This document shows, one piece after another, positions 27,953 through 53,006 of a stretch of DNA of 64,000 nt. This DNA is from Lophium mytilinum. Lineage: Eukaryota. The stretch's first letter is position 1; each line of letters starts with the position of its first letter. The position numbers and the translations under genes are program-made. The stretch lies in contig MU004194.1 of the NCBI GenBank assembly GCA_010093605.1, positions 1,154,323 to 1,218,322 on the forward strand. The letters are read 5' to 3'. The notes under the pieces were generated by a model that searched no databases, was not told where the DNA came from, and was given only the letters and a program-made list of their open reading frames with translations.

Positions 27953-28792
27953 TTACTCGTCACCACCCTTCTTCTTCGACTTCTTCGAGGGTTGAGCAGC
28001 GCCCTCCTTCTTCTGGTGCACGACGAAGCGGGTGTAGCACTCTTCTGGGTCCCACTCGAAACCGGCAAGGATGGGGTTCTCGAGTTCGTCGTCCGCCTGG
28101 ATATGAAGTCAGCTCAAGCACGTCAAGATCCACAGCACCACAACGATGGACGGAGGGATGGATTGAAGCAAGGAACAGCTACAGGCTCCAGATCTGTTTC
28201 TCGCGGCCAAGGCTGGGAGAGGTGGCATTGCTTACCTTCTTCTTGAACTGCTTGTGGATGGCATCTAGAGCGTCCTTGATGGTCACGCCCTTGAGGTTCC
28301 GCGCGGTGACCTCAAGCCCCAGAGGAAAGTGTAGGTCGATCTTCTTCAGCTTCGGCTCGCAGAGTGGCTTCTTCAGCACCTCCTTCTCGTCCAGCGTGGC
28401 TGGCGAGGTGTTCAGTTTCCTTTCGCAGCATCATCAGCATCGACTCGGTCCATTGACAAGCACGGCTCACAGACGAGTACAGCAAGAGGAGGTGGGTAGA
28501 GTGACAGCGACGAGGTCTAGAGCACGCAGGGAACGAGGCGCAGTATGCAGTGAGCACTTACCAGTTCAGCTTCTGGGTCTCAGGGGCAATCTTGATCTGC
28601 TTGCCCTCCTTCTCTGTATACGCGTCAGCTTCAGCAACCACGGTGGCCCCAATGGCAGGTGGCCTCACCGAGGTCAGCAATGTTGTAGACATCAGCAGCA
28701 GTGCTGCTCATCCGACGATGGCCTTTCTTGATGGGATGCTCTTCGACGGCCGAGTCGACCTTGGTGAGCGGGGTGTGAGTCTCAGCTGACAT
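27953..28792 (-). CDS. Conserved-looking small fungal hypothetical protein, 4 exons
   Basis: Spliced product MSAETHTPLTKVDSAV...IKIAPETQKLNW|KLNTSP...HFPLGLEVTARNLKGVTIKDALDAIHKQFKKK|ADDELENPILAGFEWDPEE...KKSKKKGGDE*; canonical splice sites. Confidence 0.8.
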
Positions 28793-30173
28793 GATGATGC
28801 TGGAGAGTGAGGGGTTGCAGCTACGGGTGTTTGTGCAATGAAACAGGTAGGCTTGTCAAGGAAGATAGTGAAGCTGGTGAGCTGTGATTGAGTGTGATGG
28901 AGCAAGGTGCAGCAGATTCAGGCACAGCAGCGGGAGTGGTAGAAGAAGAAGGAGAGAGAGTGGACAGGAGATGAGATGAGGGGTCGATGATGGCGTTACA
29001 ATCACGAGACCTGACCTGAGGGCACCTGAGCATCCGCAGAGCCCGGCCGAATCGGTCTTGAAGCATGGACGGCGGCCCGTGCATCATTTGTGGAACAAAG
29101 AATCAGGCATGGAATCACATTAAATGGAACTCTCGCTTAGTAAACCGAGCCCCAACGTTATGAATTTTCCTGTGCTCCAGCATTTATTAAATTTTCTGAA
29201 ATTAAAGGGAGCTATAAGCGGGTGCTAGGAGACCACAGCGTAATTATTTCAAGTTATGCATCCTATATTGCGTGGTTGAAAGGTACCAAAAGTATTTCAC
29301 TGCCCCCAATTTTGGAGAGTTCCATTTAATCTGATTCCATGCCTGGAATGCGGGGGAGGAGCGATCGACCGCTGGCCGCATTAGGGGCCCGCGGGCATAT
29401 AAAACTGCCTAATGTCCAATATCCAGGTGCCACTTTGAGGCGAACTCCTAGCCACCCACGACCCCTTGATCATCAAGTGGCAGTCCATGAAAGCTTGCAA
29501 AGTTCAGTCTCACAGCTTCAGATTCATGGTACACACTGTCCTTGGGCTTGCGCTCATCTGCCTAGCACTACTTTAGTTTTTCTGACACCCCATTGAGAAC
29601 TGCAAAGCGAGAATGTTGGCCGAGTCTCTTAGCACCCCAGACGGTGTTGGACTGCGACCTTGCGTTCAACAGACCCCTTCTCAACTACCAGAAAAGATCT
29701 GCTCAACCATAATATCATATCTTCTTACTATGTAAAAGCGCCACTTTAATCGTTTTGTATCGAGTTCTGCTGTTTGTTTCACTCGCAACAAGTGCTGTGC
29801 CACTCCCAGTGCCATGTTTGCTACCGACCTCCTATTGACGCAAACACCGCCATCTCAAATGTGGCACTTTGCAGCTTCAGAGTATGTCTTTCGTCTTCTG
29901 ATACCAGAGCTCTATTTCCTGTCAGCTGCCGTTCATAAGTAGACGGTTTCTCCGACTATCTCGTCCTTGGCCCCGGAAAGGCCCTTTCTCCGCATCCGAC
30001 CGCCGGCACTCGGGTTTATATCTGCCTTTTCTGTCCAAACGTCGTACACTTGAAACCCCCATCCTTCCCCAAGTCGTTGGATGCTAACGTATATCAGCCA
30101 TGCTTAGACGTCCCTTTTATCGCCTGTCCCAGCCATCCTAAAGTCTTCATAAGCCCACTATCACCAATCCATC

Positions 30174-30999
30174 ATGACGGACTCTTACAGCGGCAAAACA
30201 GTCGTCGTGACAGGTGCTGCAGGTGGCCTTGGCCGCGCTATTGCACAGGCCTTCCTGTCAGCCTCTGCAAACGTGGTCCTCGTCGACGTCAACCCAGCTC
30301 GACTTACAGCGTGTTCTTCCGAGCTCAGTACCTCGTATCCTGGCCATGTACACGCCCTCCAAGTAAACATCACGGACGAAAGTGCCGTAGAAGAGATGAT
30401 CAATACTGTCGTTAGCAAGTACTCAACTCTGGACGTGCTAGTGAACAACGCCGGCATCATGGATCACTACGATCCAGTGGGCAGCCTGGAGAAAGCCATA
30501 TGGGACAGAGTTATAGCCGTGAATCTCACTGCACCAATGCTCACGAGTAAGTATGCGGTGAAGCAGTTCCTGGAACAAGAGCAAGGAGGCGCCATCTTGA
30601 ACGTGTCTAGCACATCTGCGTTGAAGGGTTTCATTGCAGGTGCGTACTTGACCCTCCAAGTCAAAATTGTAATAGCCTTACAAAGCCACAGGTGCGGCAT
30701 ACACAGCAAGTAAGCATGGCATTATAGGTCTCACCAAAAACACCGCAGTGTTTTATGCCAAGAAAAACATCAGGTGTAGCGCCATACTGCCGGGGTATAT
30801 GCAGACAAATGTCGGAGACGCTTTTTCGGACGGGATGTGCGAAGAGGGCTACGACATGATGGACAAGGCAAGAGCGTTTGGAGTAGACGCGTGCGAACTT
30901 AGTAAGGTGGCCGAAACGGTGCTTTACCTATGCTCTCAAGCTGGGAGCATATGCAACGGAGCTTGTGTGACTGTTGATAATGCATGGGGAGCCTGGTAG
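30174..30999 (+). CDS. Short-chain dehydrogenase/reductase
   Basis: TGAAGGLG, NNAGIMD, AYTASKHG after intron 30640-30691. Confidence 0.93.
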
Positions 31000-31099
31000 T
31001 TCCACAATGCCCCTCGTGGGACAACGTAGAAGAGAAAAGATGGAAAGTTAAAACCGGAATAGAGATGAAATACTTATTTGCAGACTAGTGCTACAAGAA

Positions 31100-31395
31100 G
31101 GGCCCCCTTTTACTAAACATCTAATGCCGTACTTCTATATGAACAGCCCCCACTAAACCCCTTTATTGTGTACTAATTGGCCCGCTTTACAGGCAGTTTA
31201 TTGTAAAATATGGTACATTTACCTAAAAGCATGTAATTAAAAACACTGTAGGTAGCCTTTTATAAGAAGGATAGTGCAATTAAGATGCCCTTAGTAGCTT
31301 TATACCCTATAAGCTAATTAGAGCGCTAATGAGGTTCTAAGGGGAGAATATTATATTTAAAAATATAATACTAGATATATAGTAGAAAGGGTTTA
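31100..31395. mobile_element. MITE-like element with about 85-bp degenerate TIRs
   Basis: 31101-31182 (CCCTTTTACTAAACATCTAATGCCG...CTAATTGGCC) aligns with the reverse complement of 31313-31394; mismatches are mostly RIP-type transitions. Confidence 0.55.
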
Positions 31396-31555
31396 AGTAT
31401 ATACTATTAGTGTATTTATATAAATAAAATAGTTTTACATTATTCTAGCATTCTAGAATAAAAGCTTATAAGAACTTATCTATTATATACTAGAGCTCTA
31501 CTAGAGTTATAAGATTAGTAATAACTAGGGTCTATACTTATATAACACTATACTA

Positions 31556-31583
31556 CTATCTATCTATCTATCTATCTATACTA

Positions 31584-31651
<68 letters not shown>
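31556..31651. repeat. (TATC)n microsatellite
   Basis: Seen directly. Confidence 0.95.
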
Positions 31652-32570
31652 TTACTAACTTTTTAATAAAAAAGAGAGGTCCTATATTTTAACTAACTTA
31701 AAGAGGAGTATATTCTAACTTAATAGTAGTCTCTATTATAATAAGGCTATTAATATTCAGTAGAAGAGCTAATTCTAGACACCTAGAGAGGATATCTAAG
31801 AATTAGGTTTTCTTAGATAGTAGTCTTTAGTATAAAAGTAAGTCTACTCTTTAGTAGCTTTACTAAATAGTAGAATATAATTCCTATTAGATAAGTACTA
31901 GTAAAGTATAATTTTTTAGAATAAACTAAGTTTATTAAGCCTATAGAAAGAGTATAGAAATAGCCCTATACTTATAATGCTAGAATCCTTCTCTATAAGG
32001 AAACTTATATATATCTATTTATATAGATAAAAGAATATATTTATATATTCTACTCTATTTTTAAATATCTACTCTTAGATTTCTATATAGAATATCTATA
32101 TACCTATTAGAGTATTAAATCTAGTAGAATCTCCCCTTTTTAAAGCTTCTTACTATTAAGCTTAGTCCCTCTACTATCTTATTTATTATAAACTTATTAA
32201 ATTGCGCTAAAGTATATTCTTATAGAGTATCTTATACTTTTTCTACTACATTATAGTCTACTAGTTATAGTAGTTAGATAGCTATAGTATATATACTATA
32301 GGCTTAGAGGCTAAAGATAAGAATAAGAATATAATTAATTATATAACTCTACTTAGAATTAGTAGAGAAGTTAAGTAAGTAGATTAAAGCTTATATTCTA
32401 TTATATAGGCTATTTAAAAGGTTAGATAAAGGGTAGAAAGAATATATAACTAACCTCTTATATACTATATAGACTCTCTTATCCTTCTATATAAACTTAA
32501 TGCTAGTTTATAAGAGGGTAGTATAAAATTCTAAAAAACGGGGTATATATTCACTATAACTATTTAAACC

Positions 32571-32827
32571 TGTAAGGTTTATAATAGTATAAGCGTTATA
32601 TTCTTACGCATAATAGGCTTAAAAGCCTTTAAACGGGACGAAACTGTAAGCGTTTAAACGTAATATAACGAACGTTAGATAACGTTATAAGAATGTTAGA
32701 GAAATATTTTATAATGCATTAAATGCTATATATATACTCCCTTACTATTAATATAGAATAGAACTCAAGTAATATAATTCCTATCTATCTATTTATCTAT
32801 TCTTACATTGACTCTATACCTTTAAGA
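32571..32827 (+). mobile_element. Solo LTR of the Copia element, TSD AAACC
   Basis: Starts TGTAAGG, ends CTCTATACCTTTAAGA; AAACC at 32566-32570 and 32828-32832; matches the LTR at 62268-62407. Confidence 0.9.
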
Positions 32828-33891
32828 AAACCTTACTAAATATAATAAGTTGAAGTTTTTCCTTTTATATTATCTTATTCTGTATTACACTAGGACTCAT
32901 CCGCTACCGCCCGCGGGTTCATCTAGCTAGGGCTCCCCATCCCACCCTAAGACGATGATAAATCAGCTGTTCCCAATAGCTCTTATCGCCAGTGTATTCT
33001 GGAATGAAACCAACTCCCTTTCCTCCAGCACTAACCAGCAGCTGTGCTCTCAACGCAGTTCGCGATTTGCTCCGCAATGAGGCCTACGGCTCTGTCCACA
33101 GCTGTCATATTTGTTCCTTCAAGTTTTCTGGCAATTATGAAGGTCATGCGACATTAGGTCTACGCAGCTCACGTGATCCCGGGCCGAAAGTCCTTCCGTC
33201 GCCCTCTTCTTTCTTCGCAACCTCGTCCACAACAATACAACCTTTTCCCCCGGCTACAAGCTTGATAGTATCTCAGTCCTCAGTAAGGTCCGCAGCAATC
33301 TGTTTTCGTATCCTATCTATTGTAAAATGCGGTCATCCGCAGGTTGCGGCTCTAAGCCGTGACACTCGGGGCTTTTCTTCCTCTCCAACGTCCGGGCCCT
33401 ATCTCCAGCCTCCTCTTCCAGACCTCTTGACAAAGCCGAATGCCCTTTTAGCCACAGGCGCCTCTCGGTTGCTCCTTGCTTCTATCCTGGCAGCAATGGC
33501 GCCATTATGCAGACGTCTTGTCTCGTGGCCAAAATGCTGCGGGCTTGCCAAGGACGCCTGCAAGGCTGAAAACTATAAACATTAATTGGAGGCTCAAGCC
33601 GGCAAAACTATGCACGGGGTTCTACAAAGGTAAGAAGGCTTGCAGATACGAGGCCTTGACCTATAACAGCTCTTGGACTAAGGGTTGTGGAATCCGAACG
33701 AAAGAGCAATAGAACTGCGGGCACTGCTACGGAATAGAAATACCGTGTATCCTAAAATAAAAGAGCTGTCGTCCGCTGCACGTTTCTGCTTCAACTCCCG
33801 GTTTTTGCTTGGTCCCACGGTTCGTATCTTGAGCCTGTTCGTAACACCCTTTCAACGGGAACTATCAAAATAATTTCTTTTCGTTTGCAAA

Positions 33892-35401
33892 ATGTCGTTT
33901 TCCAAGCTCCTCCCACTCGTTCTCGCAATAGTCTTGCCTGCAGTGTGTCAAATAGCTATCCAAGAAATTCCCGCATTCATTACACCCGCTCTTGTACCCG
34001 CCTTCGATCTCTTCCCACACGCTTTAGTTCGCCGTGACTGTCCGTCTGGATATGTCACTCATCTTGGTAGGTGCATCTGCAGTTACAAACTTGGAAACCT
34101 TCTAATTACATCATTCTGTAGGTGGATGTTGTCTTGCGACAGTGATTCGAGATTGCGGTAATGGCGTAACCGTTTGCACAGCATCATGTCCTGCTTCAAG
34201 CACCATTGCGTCGGCTGCAGGATCTTGTCCCTCCGGATACCTCCCACATCTAGGTGTGTAACTGGCAATCTTAAGCTACATGACATTGATTAATGGGATT
34301 AACAGGTGGCTGCTGCCTTGCAACTGTATTGAAATATTGCGGCAATGGCATTACTGTATGCACAGCTGCATGTCCCGCCTCATCGACTACAGCTGTGGCC
34401 GATGCAGGCTGTCCTTCCGGTTATTTGACCTACCTAAGTTCGTGTCTCTCTATTCTCTACCTGGCCATTAGTTACTGACTTTTTTGTATCTAGACAGTTG
34501 TTGCCTTGCTCATAGCATCCTCGACTGTGGGCCTTTTGGCACTCTTTGTACAGGACAGTGCCCAGCAACCACCACCGCAGCCATCCTCTCAACCCCAAGC
34601 TCCTCTATCGTTACTCCTAGCCACCAGTTCATTCCGACTCCTACTGTAACGTCTGTTTCCCGTTTCACCTCCCAAACCACGGCTTACAGCCCTTCTGGCT
34701 CTGGTATAGATTCGTCGGCAATCCTATCTATTCTCCAAACTGGAGTGCCGTCATCCGTGCAGGGAAACGCGGCAGCTGCGTGTTTTCTCAACAGCGATTA
34801 TACCTCTTTCTATGCTACTCCATCATGGTACACTGTTCTCCCCGTCTCTGCACAGAGCTACTTCGCATCCGTGAACAGCGGCAACATCGCTGCTTGCACA
34901 GCCACAAAGGCTACCGGTTTTAGTGGCGGTAGCTCCTCTGGACTTACTGCAGGGGATAAAGCTGGGATCGCCATAGGGGCAATAGTAGGGGCTTCTATAT
35001 TAGGACTGTTAGTGTGGCTCTTAATTGCCAAAACCAGCATTTTCGGGGCCTCGAATTCCGCAGCGCCAGCACCAGTGCCAGCATCAAGCTGGAATCCTAC
35101 TGGTTGGAACGGCGTTGTTGGCACCAACCCACGGGGTTGGAACGGAGTAATAGGACAAGGCACAGGTGTTCCGCCCACACATCCGACTGGACAACAATAC
35201 TTTGTGCCAGCTGGTGCGGCGTTCCAAGAAAACAACGACCCGAAAATTGCGTATCCACCACCTCAGCATGGCCAATATCAAGGTCATCACCGACCTAGTG
35301 AAGTTGACGGTCGACAGTCGCACCTACCAGAAGAAGCTCATGGAAATCCTATTTACGAGATGTCAAGTGCCCCATACCACCCAGGTCAGCAGGTGCAATA
35401 G
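33892..35401 (+). CDS. Single-pass cell-surface protein (about 448 aa): signal peptide, three 6-Cys repeats, Ser/Thr stalk, Mid2-like TM helix, cytoplasmic tail
   Basis: Exons 33892-34066, 34122-34253, 34306-34437 and 34494-35401 splice in frame; TM GDKAGIAIGAIVGASILGLLVWLLI. Confidence 0.85.
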
Positions 35402-35548
35402 TAATGAGCCTAGAAATAAAACATTATAGAGACTACTCTTGTCCTTCTCGTTAACATCCTTAATACGAGTTGAAGGAGTAATAGGGCAAGGTTTGACATA
35501 TAATAAGGATATGCAGCAAAGGATTATAGTTTGTTCAGCTATATAGTT

Positions 35549-36380
35549 TTAGCCAATGCTAGGTAGCTAAATCTCTATTACTATTCGGCCAATGCCGTAT
35601 TACTATTTGGCCTACCTTACCCCGGCGGCCTTTTACTATGTTCTAGCTAGCTTACTTAAAGGGTCTACTCTTGCAAAATATAGAAAACTTACCTAGAAGC
35701 TTAACACTAGCCGCCTAAAAAGCCTTAAGTAAATAACTTAGATAAGTTTTTAGCCCTTATAGAAAGTATTGTGTAGTATTATCTAAAGACCTATAGTACT
35801 GTTATAAGATATTATAATAATCTTAATAAAAGCAGTTTATAAATATCTCCAAGCTAAATTTTAGGAAGAATAGTAGATATTGAAGGTATCGGCCTGTGCC
35901 TGTCTGCGCGTTTACTAGCCAGCGGACGGATATGCTCCTCCAACATGGAGGCGAGTCGGGCGCCGCTGAATTTAAGGTGGAAGGTTAGTATAAGAATAGA
36001 TATATAAATAGGTAGATAAATAGGAATTACATTACTTAAGTTCTATTTTACATTAAAGGTATAGAGTTAGTATAAGAATAGATAGATAGATAGTTTATAA
36101 TTATGTTACTTAAGTTCTATTCTATACTAACAGCAATAGACTTATATATATACGCTATTAATGCATTATAAAACGCTTCTCTAACGCTTATTATATCACG
36201 TTTTAAACGCCTATAAATTTTATTCTATTTAAAGGCTCTTTAAGCCTATTATATATAAGAATATAACGCTTACACTAATATAAAGCTTATAGTAAATAGA
36301 TTCTAGGGGCGTAGATAGGCTGCATGTAATATTATCTTAGCTAGATAGTAAGAGGGGGTTAATTATCTAGTATTAGCCAG
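35549..36380. mobile_element. Non-autonomous TIR element (about 75-bp TIRs) with LTR sequence nested inside
   Basis: 35549-35625 (GCCAATGCTAGGTAGCTAAATCTCTATTACTATTCGGCCAA...) aligns with the reverse complement of 36303-36380. Confidence 0.6.
36051..36291 (-). mobile_element. Copia LTR copy (RIP-mutated), preceded by a partial LTR copy at about 35971-36050
   Basis: Reverse complement of the LTR consensus (ATTAAAGGTATAGAG...TAACGCTTACACT...TTATA); no clear TSD. Confidence 0.8.
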
Positions 36381-36469
36381 GTCTTAGTAGGAAAGTAATA
36401 TACTGGTACTACTTGCAGGTACCTAAGTTTAAGCCTAGAGTTAGATAGAATTAGTGGTTAAAAGCTTAT

Positions 36470-36979
36470 TATAAGTTTTGTAGTAGTATAAGCGTTATAT
36501 CCTTATATTAAATAGACTTAAAAGCTATTAAAGAGGAATACTAGAATAATGCATCTTAATAGCTTATTCTTAGTAGCTCTTCTAGACCTACTATATCTCC
36601 CCCGCAGTAAAACGTAATAGAGAAGGACGCTTAACGCCGAATACAATAGAGGCCAAAATTTTCACCCAAGCGCTGCCCGGCAGCAAACGGTTTCCCCTTG
36701 TAAATTAACCTAGATAGAACGGCTGCATGAACCCTAACGGGAGCTACACCAGCGTGATATAATTCAATAATAATAATATTAATAAGGAATAAAACTATAA
36801 CCTTATGAAAGTAATACAAGGATTGTTAGATAATATTAGAAGAACTTTAGAGAAGTGTTTTACAATGCATTAAATAATATAGATATTTAGCACTGAATGC
36901 TATTAGTATATAATATAACTTAAGTGTATTTTCTATATATCTATCTATCTATTCTTATACTAACTCTATACCTTTAACC
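36470..36979 (+). mobile_element. Copia LTR interrupted by about 280 bp of foreign sequence
   Basis: LTR 5' part 36470-36540 and 3' part about 36824-36979; CTTAT at 36465-36469 and 36981-36985 (near-TSD, 1 nt offset). Confidence 0.65.
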
Positions 36980-37040
36980 TCTTATTGGAAGTAATCCCTT
37001 ATAAAACCTAATAATATCTATTTTTCTACCTATTTCTCCA

Positions 37041-37188
37041 TCTATCTATATATCTATATCTATATATCTATATATCTATCTATCTATATAGCTATCTATC
37101 TATCTATATATCTATATCTATATATCTATATATCTATCTATCTATATAGCTATCTATCTATCTATATATCTATATCTATCTATCTATA

Positions 37189-37235
<47 letters not shown>
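37041..37235. repeat. Compound (TATC)n/(TA)n microsatellite
   Basis: Seen directly. Confidence 0.95.
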
Positions 37236-37569
37236 ACAAGATAATAGAAATAAGAAAGTAAGAAGTTGGCCTACTAGTTAAGCTGTTAGGCTCTTAGAAT
37301 ATAATATCTATTAGTAGAGAAGGGCTATAGTAAAGTATTTTACTCTTAGAGGTAGATATAGATACTACTAAACTACCTACTATTAGGCTTTTAGTACAAA
37401 ATAGATAGGAAGATAAGGGTTCTATACTATAGGCTTATTTTCTTTATTAAGATAGTATATAAACGCTTTTTAAAGAAGAGTTTTAATATATAAGTAGATA
37501 AATCTTCCCTAAATATACTCTAATTTCTTAGTAATTTAGTATATATAACTCTTTCTATTGGTCTCTATT

Positions 37570-37806
37570 TGTAAATTCTATAACAGTATAAGCGTTATGT
37601 CCTTACGCATAATAGGCTTAAAAGCCTTTAAACGGAACAGAACCGTGAGCGTTTGAACGTGATACAACAAACGTTAGAGAAACGTTTTACAATGCATTAA
37701 ATGCTGTATATATAATTCCGTTGCTGTCAATGTAGAATAGAACTCAAGCAATACAATTCCTATCTATCTATCTATCTATTCTCCCATTGACTCTATACCT
37801 TTAACA
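37570..37806 (+). mobile_element. Solo LTR (least mutated full copy), TSD CTATT
   Basis: TG...CA termini intact (TGTAAATTC...CCTTTAACA); CTATT at 37565-37569 and 37807-37811. Confidence 0.92.
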
Positions 37807-37931
37807 CTATTATCTATTATTTTATATCTAGCTTAAGTTTTGTTACTATACTATAAGCTAGAGCCTTTTTATAAGTATAAGAAAGCGCTATTCTATCCCC
37901 TTAATGTATAGGTAGAGGATACTTAATATCT

Positions 37932-38180
37932 TAAGCGTTATATCCTTACGCATAATAAGCTTAAAAGCCTTTAGACGGAATAAACCTGTAAGCGTTCAAA
38001 CATGATATAATAAATTCTAGATAATATTATAAGAACATTTATTAGAGGAGCGTTTTATAATGTATTGAATAGCGTATATATATAACTCCATTGCTGTTAA
38101 TATAGAATAGAACTTGGGTAATATAAATCCTATCTATCTATCTATCTATCTATTCTTATATTAACTCTATACCTTTAATA
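37932..38180 (+). mobile_element. 5'-truncated Copia LTR copy
   Basis: TAAGCGTTATATCCTTACGCATAA...CTCTATACCTTTAATA. Confidence 0.85.
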
Positions 38181-38640
38181 GTAGTAGTAGTTTTCTTAAA
38201 GAAAGTTTAGTATAGGGGAGGTAAGCTATATATCTCTAGAAAGACTAGTATAGAAGATAAAGGCTATAGAAAAACAGAAAGAGCTATAGAGTTTAAGTAT
38301 ATATATTAGTATAGTTACTGCTATATAATCTAGACTTCTAATAGTTTAGTTTCTACTACTATACTATTACCTCTATAATAGTAAATAGACTAATTCTATA
38401 TAAATCTAGTCTTCTAATCTATTTTTAAAAGTATTAAATATAAGTTTGTTTTCTAAGTAAATAGATAGAAAGATATAATAGAAGAAATAAACTTAGTTTT
38501 CTTCTAGTAGTTAACCTCAATTTTCTAGAGGTAATATAGTAGTTTTAAGAAGGTAATTTTCCATATAGTATAGTAATACTGTAGAGATACTTACTTTATA
38601 ACTACTAGTAATATATATATATCTATCTAATATAATTATA

Positions 38641-39335
38641 TCTTAGTTATATTACCTCTAATTATGTTTTTACTTATTAGGTATAAAGCATCTACACAAC
38701 TATCTTATTTAATTATCTAATTGGCTACAGACTTAATAAAGCTGAATAGGGGCTCTACTTTGCCTGCTTCACTCACTCGCTAATTCGAAATGCTCTCTTT
38801 ACAGCACAACCGCCCCTGTGTACAACAAACAAAAGTGATTATACTTGTCCTTGTCCTCCGCGTCCAAGCACAACACACACTACGGCCACTTACACCTGCG
38901 GCTACTACTACTGCTCTTTCTAGGGGTAAGAACCGTGCCCGGCCGCTAGGCCTATAAAGTAGGCGGCGATGGAAGAGGTCGCGGCTTAATTCAGAAGAGC
39001 CCTAAGAAGGTAAGATTTCAACAGCTTTAGCATGCTTATAGGCATATAGGCCCGGCAGCTAGCAATGTAAAAGCGTAAGGATGGTGGAATTAGATCTAAG
39101 GGATGAGCAATAAAACTAATTAAATACAGAGGCTTTTAAGCCTCACAGATAGATAGCCCCATGTACTGCCTCAAGTACGTACGGCATGGATCATGGATGC
39201 ATGTAAAAATCGAGCTCCGGACGAAGCTCTAAGCCGGTTTTGGCCAATCAGAAGATCAGACAAGAGGGTGAGGGTGCAAATACCGAAAAGAAGGGTGTGA
39301 AAATCCAAAAAGAGGGTGTACACCCAGGTATCCGT
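38641..39335. mobile_element. Non-autonomous TIR element with about 95-bp TIRs
   Basis: The left arm ...TCTTATTTAATTATCTAATTGGCTA is a RIP version of the reverse complement of the right arm TGGCCAATCAGAAGATCAGACAAGA... Confidence 0.5.
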
Positions 39336-39569: not shown

Positions 39570-40663
39570 TCAGTCGGCGAGTCTGTATGATCGTTAGTCG
39601 TGTTTTCCTCCCTTAGTCTCCAGCACATCTTACCTATAGCTGACTAGTGTGTCCACACGATGGTTACTCGTGCTGAAGCTCCGCAGCTGTACCTTTTCGC
39701 CATTCTTGATCTCCTTTGCGTCGCTGTCACCCCATTCCAGTGGCACGTCTGAGTCTGCATCTGCATAGACCAGCACGTTGAATGTGCAATTGCCGTCGAG
39801 CATGGGCAAAAATGTGACTGAAGCAGTAATCTGGCGGAAGATAGACTGTATCTCAGCTTGGATCTCCTGCTCGGTCTTCTCAGGGACTGGCTCTCCCGCA
39901 CTAGGTCGACGTCAGAGTTATCGTACACAACCTAAGCTGGCGGTCAATAACTCACTCCGCACCAACGTTCTCTTTGTCCGCTGTTTTCTTCGAAGATTTG
40001 GCCTTTGATGGCTTTCCAAACAATTGAACCTTGCAAAGTTTAGCATGTGGCGCTGTGAAGAGCGTGAGAACCAACATCGAACTGCCACCGTTCCACGTGC
40101 TCGCCAGTTTCTTTACTAGTGATGACAATGACAAGTTTTGAAATCTTTCCACCGTACATCCAATCTTTCAGCTGGGACATGATTTTCTTGATGTAGGCTT
40201 TGACTTGGTCGTCTGCGGTCACTATTGACGATTTAGAAGAGCATCCCTCATCGCGACGAGCGACTTACCCATCATTGTCAAGCCATACTTCTTGACGCTA
40301 TGAGTCGTTTAGTATATATAACAACTATTTTGCTAAAATATGGAGACATACGCAGTGAAATCTTCTGCAGGATACACACCGCGCTGGAACCTGGGACCGG
40401 TCAGCAGGCACGCATTTGAAGTGCAAGCGTTTGACTCACAGAATAGTGTTTATCGAATATTCAAACTAGACATCGTTAGTCTTAGATATGCAAGGCAATT
40501 GGGTGAGCGTTAGGGCCACCTACAAACTCGGATACAACCTTGGAAGACCCTAGAAAGCGTTAGTCAATCCACTCCGGCTCAGTGCAAGGAACGGGGCACC
40601 TTTGAGCGCAAGTTTGTGCACCTTGGAGGAGTCTTTCTTTGAGGAAACCTTTGGTTGCGACAT
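39570..40663 (-). CDS. MAD2: Spindle assembly checkpoint protein Mad2 (HORMA domain), 9 exons
   Basis: [70 protein letters not shown]. Confidence 0.97.
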
Positions 40664-52190: not shown

Positions 52191-53006
52191 TGCTACGTGT
52201 ACGGCCCTTTTTTGGCTGCTTGTACGATGTCTTTTTGATACATGTACGAAACCCCTAGGAGACCTTTCACTGCGTTTTAATTGGCTTGCTTAAAGGCCCG
52301 ACTCCTCCAAAGCCATGAAAGATTTACTTAAAAACTCAACGCGCAGGTACGAGGTTTACAGCCTGCCGCAGCCTTGTAAGGCAGCTCGTGAGGCGGCTAA
52401 TAAGGTATGCGGAGGATCTTGTTGATAAGGACTTCACGTAGTGCTTATAGGGGAGCAGCGATAGAGAGAGGGTTGCTATTAGGTGCAAATCAATGGCTTG
52501 GGCATTCTCCTGGGCTTGTGGGCATGTATGTATGGAGCTATACATATATCTATAGGAATAGGAAGACTATAGATGAAATAGAAAGGCTGCACGTGCAAAT
52601 AGTGAAGGCCCGGCGGAAGTCCCAAGCCCTCCAAGCCAATCAAAACGCTGTGAAAGGGTCTACCAGGATAGGGGGTCGTACGTGCAGCAAAAAGACCTCG
52701 TACAAGCAAAAGAAAGGGGTTGTGTATATATATATAAGGTTTACAATAGCATAAGCGTTATATCCTTACGCATAATAGGCTTAAAAGCTTTTAAACGGGA
52801 CAAAACCATAAGCGTTTAAACGTAATACAACGAACATTAGATAACATTACAAGAACGTTAGAGAATTGTTTTATAATGCATTAAATACTATATATATATA
52901 ATTCTATTACTATTAATATAAAATAGAACTTAAGTAATATAATTCCTATCTATCTATCTATCTATCTAATCTTATATTAACTCTATACCTTAAATAATAT
53001 ATAGCA
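52191..53006. mobile_element. MITE-like element with about 100-bp TIRs; the right terminus is interrupted by a solo LTR
   Basis: 52191-52288 (TGCTTGTACGATGTCTTTTTG...CCTTTCACTGCGTTTTAATTGGCTTG) is closely matched by the reverse complement of 52632-52732; the terminal TAGCA resumes at 53002-53006. Confidence 0.8.
52733..52996 (+). mobile_element. Solo LTR, TSD ATATA
   Basis: TATAAGGTTTACAATAGCATAAGCGTTA...CTCTATACCTTAAATA; ATATA on both sides (low-complexity TSD). Confidence 0.85.

Follow-up and report, generated by a model that had tools for sequence, protein, structure and literature searches.

A spliced gene of Lophium mytilinum encodes a putative surface sensor or receptor with three six-cysteine modules that share an internal intron position

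The window analysed here, a stretch of 64,000 nucleotides from the Dothideomycete Lophium mytilinum, contains a spliced gene whose protein carries three copies of a 32-aa module with six cysteines, and each copy is interrupted by a phase-1 intron at the same internal position. Judged by its layout, the protein is on balance probably a type I plasma-membrane sensor or receptor of the cell wall, similar to Wsc and Mid2 and equipped with a new head domain, and the repeat very probably arose by tandem duplication of an exon-plus-intron unit. The coordinates of the gene, its protein features and its neighbours are collected in Table 1.

Table 1. Positions, in the window, of the module gene, the parts of its product and the surrounding features
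Feature	Position	Strand	Remarks
DUF6699 gene	28179-28430	-	
Short-chain dehydrogenase gene	30153-30999	+	adh_short, E 1.8e-37
AT-rich blocks	31000-32900 and 35500-38900		RIP-type indices, (CTAT)n arrays; isolate the gene
Transcribed 5' leader	33232..33891	+	at least 660 nt, from transcript contig coverage
Exon 1, CDS	33892..34066	+	175 nt; signal peptide, pro-segment ending in RR, Cys1 segment of module 1
Module 1	34039..34189	+	aa 50-81, interrupted by intron 1
Intron 1	34067..34121	+	55 nt, GT-AG, phase 1, within module 1
Exon 2	34122..34253	+	132 nt, phase 1-1; module 1 Cys2-Cys6, linker, module 2 Cys1
Module 2	34226..34373	+	aa 94-125, interrupted by intron 2
Intron 2	34254..34305	+	52 nt, GT-AG, phase 1, within module 2
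Exon 3	34306..34437	+	132 nt, phase 1-1; module 2 Cys2-Cys6, linker, module 3 Cys1
Module 3	34410..34561	+	aa 138-169, interrupted by intron 3; most diverged copy
Intron 3	34438..34493	+	56 nt, GT-AG, phase 1, within module 3
Ser/Thr-rich stalk	34562..34714	+	aa 170-220, 51 aa, 45% S+T
2-Cys domain adjoining the membrane	34715..34897	+	about aa 221-281; conserved Cys 243 and 281, TPxWY motif
Transmembrane helix, single	34967..35029	+	about aa 305-325; hydropathy peak 2.52 at aa 307-325
Cytoplasmic tail	35030..35401	+	aa 326-448 (123 aa), then stop codon
HORMA-domain gene	39630-40264	-	probably Mad2

Counted from the ATG at 33892, the four coding exons measure 175, 132, 132 and 908 nt and meet at junctions that are all in phase 1, and the joined reading frame gives 448 aa without an internal stop. 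A branch-like site is present close to the 3' end of each of the three introns. A preliminary description, made from the DNA letters, had proposed these three introns and two internal exons of exactly 132 bp, and had named RNA data at odds with its splice junctions as grounds for abandoning the model. A transcript contig of 2267 nt, which covers 33232-35661, omits 55, 52 and 56 nt exactly at the three GT-AG introns and agrees with all three junctions, and the computed exon lengths were borne out in the same way. The contigs came from a single run whose RNA status is presumed, and two of them fall on the region, one of which spans the gene; this contig is spliced and is therefore derived from a transcript. 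The gene is real and is spliced as predicted. In addition, a database protein of 448 aa (P0001), named at its source as a hypothetical protein of Lophium mytilinum, matches the spliced product, but the record is probably an annotation of the same locus and its support is hence non-independent. Exons 2 and 3 are identical at 86 of 132 nt. Computed skipping of exon 2, of exon 3 or of both keeps the frame and leaves two, two and one whole modules, respectively; the in-frame skipping suggested earlier therefore held as a computation, but the single gene-covering contig showed no skipped form, and contigs lose rare variants.

The length of the 5' leader is a lower bound, because contigs do not define the start of a transcript. 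The leader holds six upstream ATGs, two of which stand in a good start context, and a scan of these ATGs gave uORFs of 3-29 codons; given these upstream ATGs, translation of the gene may be under uORF control. A stop-to-stop frame of 201 codons (32980-33585, + strand) overlaps the leader, has no Pfam match and is probably not a gene. A contig of low depth, 181 nt long, lies at 32879-33059.

In all three modules the cysteines follow the identical spacing C-x10-CC-x7-C-x6-C-x3-C (10-0-7-6-3), and the two linkers between the modules of P0001 are 12 aa each. An RR pair at aa 47-48 (34030-34035) stands directly ahead of module 1, so that the earlier account of three copies directly after a dibasic site was upheld. 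When all six frames of the window were scanned for the core CC-x7-C-x6-C-x3-C, only three sites emerged, and these are the three modules. Measured from the first base of Cys1, every one of the three introns lies at 28 nt, and each precedes the CC codons by 5 nt; for introns placed at random, the probability of such a shared position is about 6e-5. The claim that the introns fall at one position of the repeat was thus sustained and at the same time refined, in that this position is inside the module and not at its edge. An even number of cysteines in a secreted domain means disulfides as a rule, and each module would be expected to form a compact three-disulfide beta unit.

In searches of Pfam, the exons, P0001 and seven aligned module rows all stayed below cutoff. 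For P0001, there was no match to WSC (PF01822) at E<=10 and no match to Mid2 (PF04478) or to the CFEM and hydrophobin families of Pfam, and neither granulin nor CFEM was matched by P0001 or by the seven module rows. Three weak scores, each obtained with one of the seven rows, were rejected: CPL1-like (PF21671; E 0.063, 13.8 bits against a cutoff of 27.4), beta-defensin (E 0.059, from one exon of L002, a metagenomic relative described below) and CxC7. Class II hydrophobins have eight cysteines with two CC pairs; this class was ruled out by the six cysteines and one CC pair per unit and by the lack of a Pfam match. A sequence search of the PDB with the module profile returned nothing at E<=10, and PDB searches with P0001 and with a 40-row family profile returned either nothing or chance-level matches only. 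The Atlas gave no usable feature match for the modules, and every structure row there had a TM below 0.4. These results support the proposal that the module is an uncharacterised domain, apparently of no named family, and agree with the earlier statement that its cysteine spacing is unlike that of WSC and CFEM. Many small cysteine domains of fungi have no Pfam name. Word-match searches, which reach mainly the open literature, found no description of the module or the protein. AlphaFold gave a pLDDT of 38 for the full chain of P0001 alone, with a helix at 299-331 as the best-supported part. For exon 2, which is a circular permutant of the module, the pLDDT was 54 when the seven rows were supplied, and the model had four short strands. 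Foldseek and VIA returned no match for the exon 2 model, which is too weak to bear on novelty.

To find relatives, 1.84 billion representatives were searched with phmmer at a cutoff of E<=0.001, and the majority of the 54 hits match the juxtamembrane segment rather than the module. With a local module HMM, eight proteins from a fetched set of 59 scored below E 0.001, and five of these eight had been used in building that HMM. The eight proteins form five clusters (P0001; P0002; P0003, P0055 and P0056; P0016; P0043 and P0058), and a profile search restricted to lengths of 99-2000 aa brought back four of them and nothing further. All of the module proteins other than P0001 are unspliced gene calls. 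Four of these calls break at points that fit a phase-1 donor or acceptor, and in P0016 the reading continues through 54 nt flanked by a candidate GTAAGT donor and an AG acceptor, both observations being compatible with introns. Residues 1-29 of P0056 are a shifted-frame reading of another module exon, and its gene must therefore have two modules or more; in P0056 the last module is joined 2 nt out of frame. Metagenomes were scanned twice. The first scan confirmed none of 413 candidates, and the second, a DNA pattern scan, yielded two genuine hits among five matches, L002 and L005, which are identical over 1218 nt and were therefore counted as one gene, while the remaining three matches (L001, L003 and L004) had no tblastn match. 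The contig of P0016 itself was not among the matches of the second scan, so the scanned collection is incomplete. None of 32 candidates on viral contigs carries the module, and phage records gave no match. Including the window gene, there are at least six module-bearing genes in total, and the module is rare and patchily distributed.

L002 is modelled as a protein of 431 aa that has three modules, and its gene contains three GT-AG phase-1 introns, all of which lie 5 nt ahead of the CC codons as in the window gene, whereas its internal exons measure 123 and 207 nt against 132 and 132. The three modules and the intron site of the preliminary description therefore recur in this relative and its exon length does not: the intron position is conserved, and the length of 132 bp is not. 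Exon 3 of L002 (3209-3415, - strand) contains an expanded linker rich in Thr, Pro and Ala, and the CPSGY motif is gone from the third module, whose cysteines are retained with the spacing 11-0-7-5-3. Near its transmembrane helix L002 scores weakly on Mid2 (E 0.023, 14.9 bits against a cutoff of 23.2), and it has neither the 2-Cys domain nor the W-N-G tail motifs of the window protein. Erosion of the 2-Cys domain and recombination may account equally well for this different C-terminal part. Given L002, the module head and the 2-Cys, transmembrane and tail chassis are not obligate partners.

The rest of the window protein has the order of a membrane-anchored surface protein. The N-terminus is hydrophobic (hydropathy 2.0 for aa 1-19), and a signal peptide is predicted at about aa 1-20. 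Kex2-type proteases cut after dibasic sites, and such a cleavage is predicted after the RR pair. The stalk is probably O-mannosylated, whereas no N-x-S/T sequon for N-glycosylation is present in P0001. A GLxxGxKxGI motif lies directly ahead of the transmembrane helix, and the tail carries two WNGVxG motifs (aa 351 and 362) and GNPIYE (aa 430). Signal peptide, cysteine-rich head, Ser/Thr-rich stalk, transmembrane helix and tail thus bear out the surface-sensor layout that had been proposed. The CF-x-TPxW core of the 2-Cys domain was found in 43 of the 54 phmmer homologues, with the second cysteine nearly always at a near-fixed distance, and no Pfam family covers this domain in P0001 or in the homologues scanned. 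Many homologue tails carry at least two W[NSD]G copies, and that of P0013 carries 11. Other heads stand on the same chassis: among 52 phmmer hits scanned, WSC was above the Pfam cutoff in three and ricin-B in one, one chassis relative is named at its source as CFEM-containing, and several homologues bear CC-rich repeats that fail the module HMM. The named members come from Lophiotrema, Clohesyomyces, Microthyrium, Cudoniella, Clonostachys, one Phaeosphaeriaceae and one Helotiales isolate, and all named relatives among the 30 proteins looked up are annotated as hypothetical. A tree built from 39 rows of the chassis segment, from which rows that were too short or had no core were omitted, placed four module-headed rows and P0004 on one side of a branch (94/79). 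This group adjoins the WSC-headed group (99/97), with support of 80/89 for the joint branch, below the star threshold of the tool. Atlas leads for the chassis point to ascomycete membrane proteins, including one cluster that is 25% Mid2; all scores were <=0.80, and we treat them as leads only. Taken by sequence, the 2-Cys domain and the W-N-G repeats of the tail, as found in the window protein and in P0002-P0052, appear to mark a wider family that extends across several ascomycete classes.

Comparison with known systems places the window protein close to several families and apparently within none of them. Like the Wsc sensors (ScWsc1-3) described in PMC9024836, it has the order of cysteine-rich head, Ser/Thr-rich stalk, transmembrane helix and tail; in P0001 the stalk is short, the helix is single and a tail of 123 aa follows. 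In addition, WSC-headed proteins share its juxtamembrane chassis. However, its head consists of three 32-aa six-Cys modules instead of one eight-Cys WSC domain and has no aromatic clusters, whereas Wsc1 has 12 exposed aromatics (PMC9024836), and the window protein has an additional 2-Cys domain by the membrane and a patchy distribution. With the Mid2/Mtl1 sensors (PF04478) it has the Ser/Thr-rich stalk, transmembrane helix and tail in common, but Mid-type sensors are described in bioRxiv 2025.11.24.690177 with an N-glycosylated residue in place of a cysteine head, and P0001 offers no such site. In progranulin, each CN exon joins the C-terminal half of one module to the N-terminal half of the next by way of a Cys-free linker (PMC4527844), a layout like that of the window gene. 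The likeness is one of gene structure alone, as granulin has 12 cysteines, is secreted and, in the same source, is reported absent from fungi. Hevein-like or type 1 chitin-binding domains share with the module the CC pair, a later C-G-x5-C loop and the small size. The loose hevein likeness noted earlier nevertheless failed on two counts, since the cysteine order is C-C-CC-C-C in hevein and C-CC-C-C-C in the module, and the chitin motif S-x-aromatic-x-aromatic-C-G-x4-Y (both from PMC5478723) is absent from all ten aligned module cores. The window protein belongs to none of the Wsc, Mid2, CFEM, granulin and hevein families.

Under the reading that we consider on balance probable, the signal peptide and the pro-segment would be removed, the latter by a Kex2-type cut after RR, the three modules would fold as disulfide units, and the glycosylated stalk would project them into the wall. 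There the modules might bind a wall polymer or a protein, or cluster, with the repeat providing avidity, in the role that WSC has in Wsc sensors; load or binding would be transmitted through the stalk and the transmembrane helix to the tail, where the conserved W-N-G motifs may dock a cytoplasmic partner. Against this sensor reading stand the absence of a WSC domain, of aromatic clusters and of a Mid2-type N-glycosylation site and the shortness of the pure Ser/Thr-rich stalk, only 51 aa. The layout of cysteines, transmembrane helix and tail is generic among fungal surface proteins, and the rarity of the module is unlike core wall-integrity sensors, both of which also count against it. More tentatively, and only as a possible extension, the chassis may define an undescribed receptor family of filamentous ascomycetes with interchangeable heads (WSC, ricin-B, CFEM-like, CC-rich and six-Cys), in which the module would be a new disulfide fold that replaces WSC and whose copy number would be tuned by duplication or skipping of half-module exons.

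Three other functions were weighed against the sensor reading. It is unlikely, though worth considering, that the protein is a non-signalling adhesin or wall anchor, in which the modules would bind a surface or a glycan and the transmembrane helix and tail would serve only for anchoring and traffic. Small tandem cysteine modules on a Ser/Thr-rich stalk suit avidity binding, a ricin-B lectin head occurs on the same chassis elsewhere, and the tail of L002 differs; however, W-N-G is kept in the tails of distant and differently headed homologues, which suggests a cytoplasmic partner. The adhesin account is also disfavoured by the conservation of a single aromatic residue, a Tyr, among the one to three that each module has. 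Aromatic stacking on glycans is therefore poorly supported, and glycan binding by the modules is at most faintly suggested. A precursor of released antimicrobial or signalling peptides, comparable to progranulin, is improbable. The exon layout resembles the CN exons of progranulin, whose repeat grew by exon duplication and whose granulin modules are released by proteolysis (PMC4527844). The dibasic site ahead of module 1, present in three of the four genes where the region is visible (L002 has a single Arg), and the weak beta-defensin score of one L002 exon point the same way. Nevertheless, the inter-module linkers have no basic residues and contain 33-42% S/T, their length varies (9, 12 and 36 aa), and a transmembrane anchor was present in every full-length member seen. 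Slightly more improbable is a CFEM-like surface protein that captures metal or haem through Cys and His, an idea that draws on the six cysteines per module, on a His that most copies have in their first loop and on the chassis relative named as CFEM-containing. It is at odds with the absence of a CFEM match in P0001 and with the lack of this His in module 3 of both fully seen genes, P0001 and L002, and the even cysteine count points to disulfides.

The origin of the repeat can be read from the arrangement of its exons. First exons contain one module cysteine and last exons five, the internal exons connect the rear part of one module through a linker to the leading part of the module after it, and length variation is confined to the linker from Cys6 to the next Cys1. 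We consider it very probable that the ancestor was a gene with a single module, itself split by a phase-1 intron, and that it grew by tandem duplication of the exon-plus-intron unit. Modules 1 and 2 of the window gene differ at 7 of 33 aa, and 15 of their 26 shared residues use different codons; module 1 of the window gene and module 1 of L002 are identical at 26 of 33 aa (79%), and 15 of these 26 codons are silently different. Similarity among the three introns did not exceed that of shuffles (fractions 0.49, 0.20 and 0.06). Because protein identity reaches 79% while the silent sites are heavily diverged, the duplication of the module is old, and purifying selection holds its protein sequence beyond the cysteines alone. 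The preliminary description had instead invoked exon shuffling, in which a 1-1 exon would be mobile, entering genes by intronic recombination and passing from one to another. The exons are indeed symmetric and of phase 1, and L002 combines the same module head with a different C-terminal part. However, in a class 1-1 shuffling module the introns lie at the domain borders, which is not the case here. With its five Cys, linker and next Cys1, the exon is a circularly permuted module and therefore cannot move a whole domain between genes, and exon 4 encodes five of the last module's six cysteines together with the stalk, the transmembrane helix and the tail. Furthermore, the phmmer, profile and DNA scans returned only stalked transmembrane proteins or fragments and no module beside an unrelated globular domain, and exon 4 of L002 aligns collinearly with that of the window gene (27%, composition correction off), so that erosion explains L002 equally. 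Shuffling is thus the least probable of the readings weighed, and tandem duplication explains the pattern. Unequal crossing over drives the turnover of repeats (PMC5100051).

The molecular job of the cysteine-rich head in fungal wall sensors remains open (PMC9024836), and swaps of the WSC head between species are reported to alter clustering little (bioRxiv 2025.11.24.690177). Natural proteins with a constant chassis and tail and varied heads lend themselves to a domain-swap test of what is required of the head. The gene adds two unnamed domains, the 32-aa candidate three-disulfide module and the 2-Cys juxtamembrane domain, the first of which is small enough for NMR and possibly has a new fold, and it provides a clean fungal example of module multiplication through half-module exons.

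The gene forms an island of normal GC content between AT-rich blocks with RIP-type dinucleotide indices, and the RIP signature is absent from its own coding region. An inverted-repeat pair specific to the gene was considered and rejected, because the flanking element of about 260 bp has eight hits across the window, one of them in inverted orientation at 36046-36289 and another at 52735-52991. The HORMA-domain gene beyond the downstream block presumably encodes Mad2. As in the window, AT-rich DNA with a RIP-like index lies upstream of the homologous gene in L005 (2001-4000).
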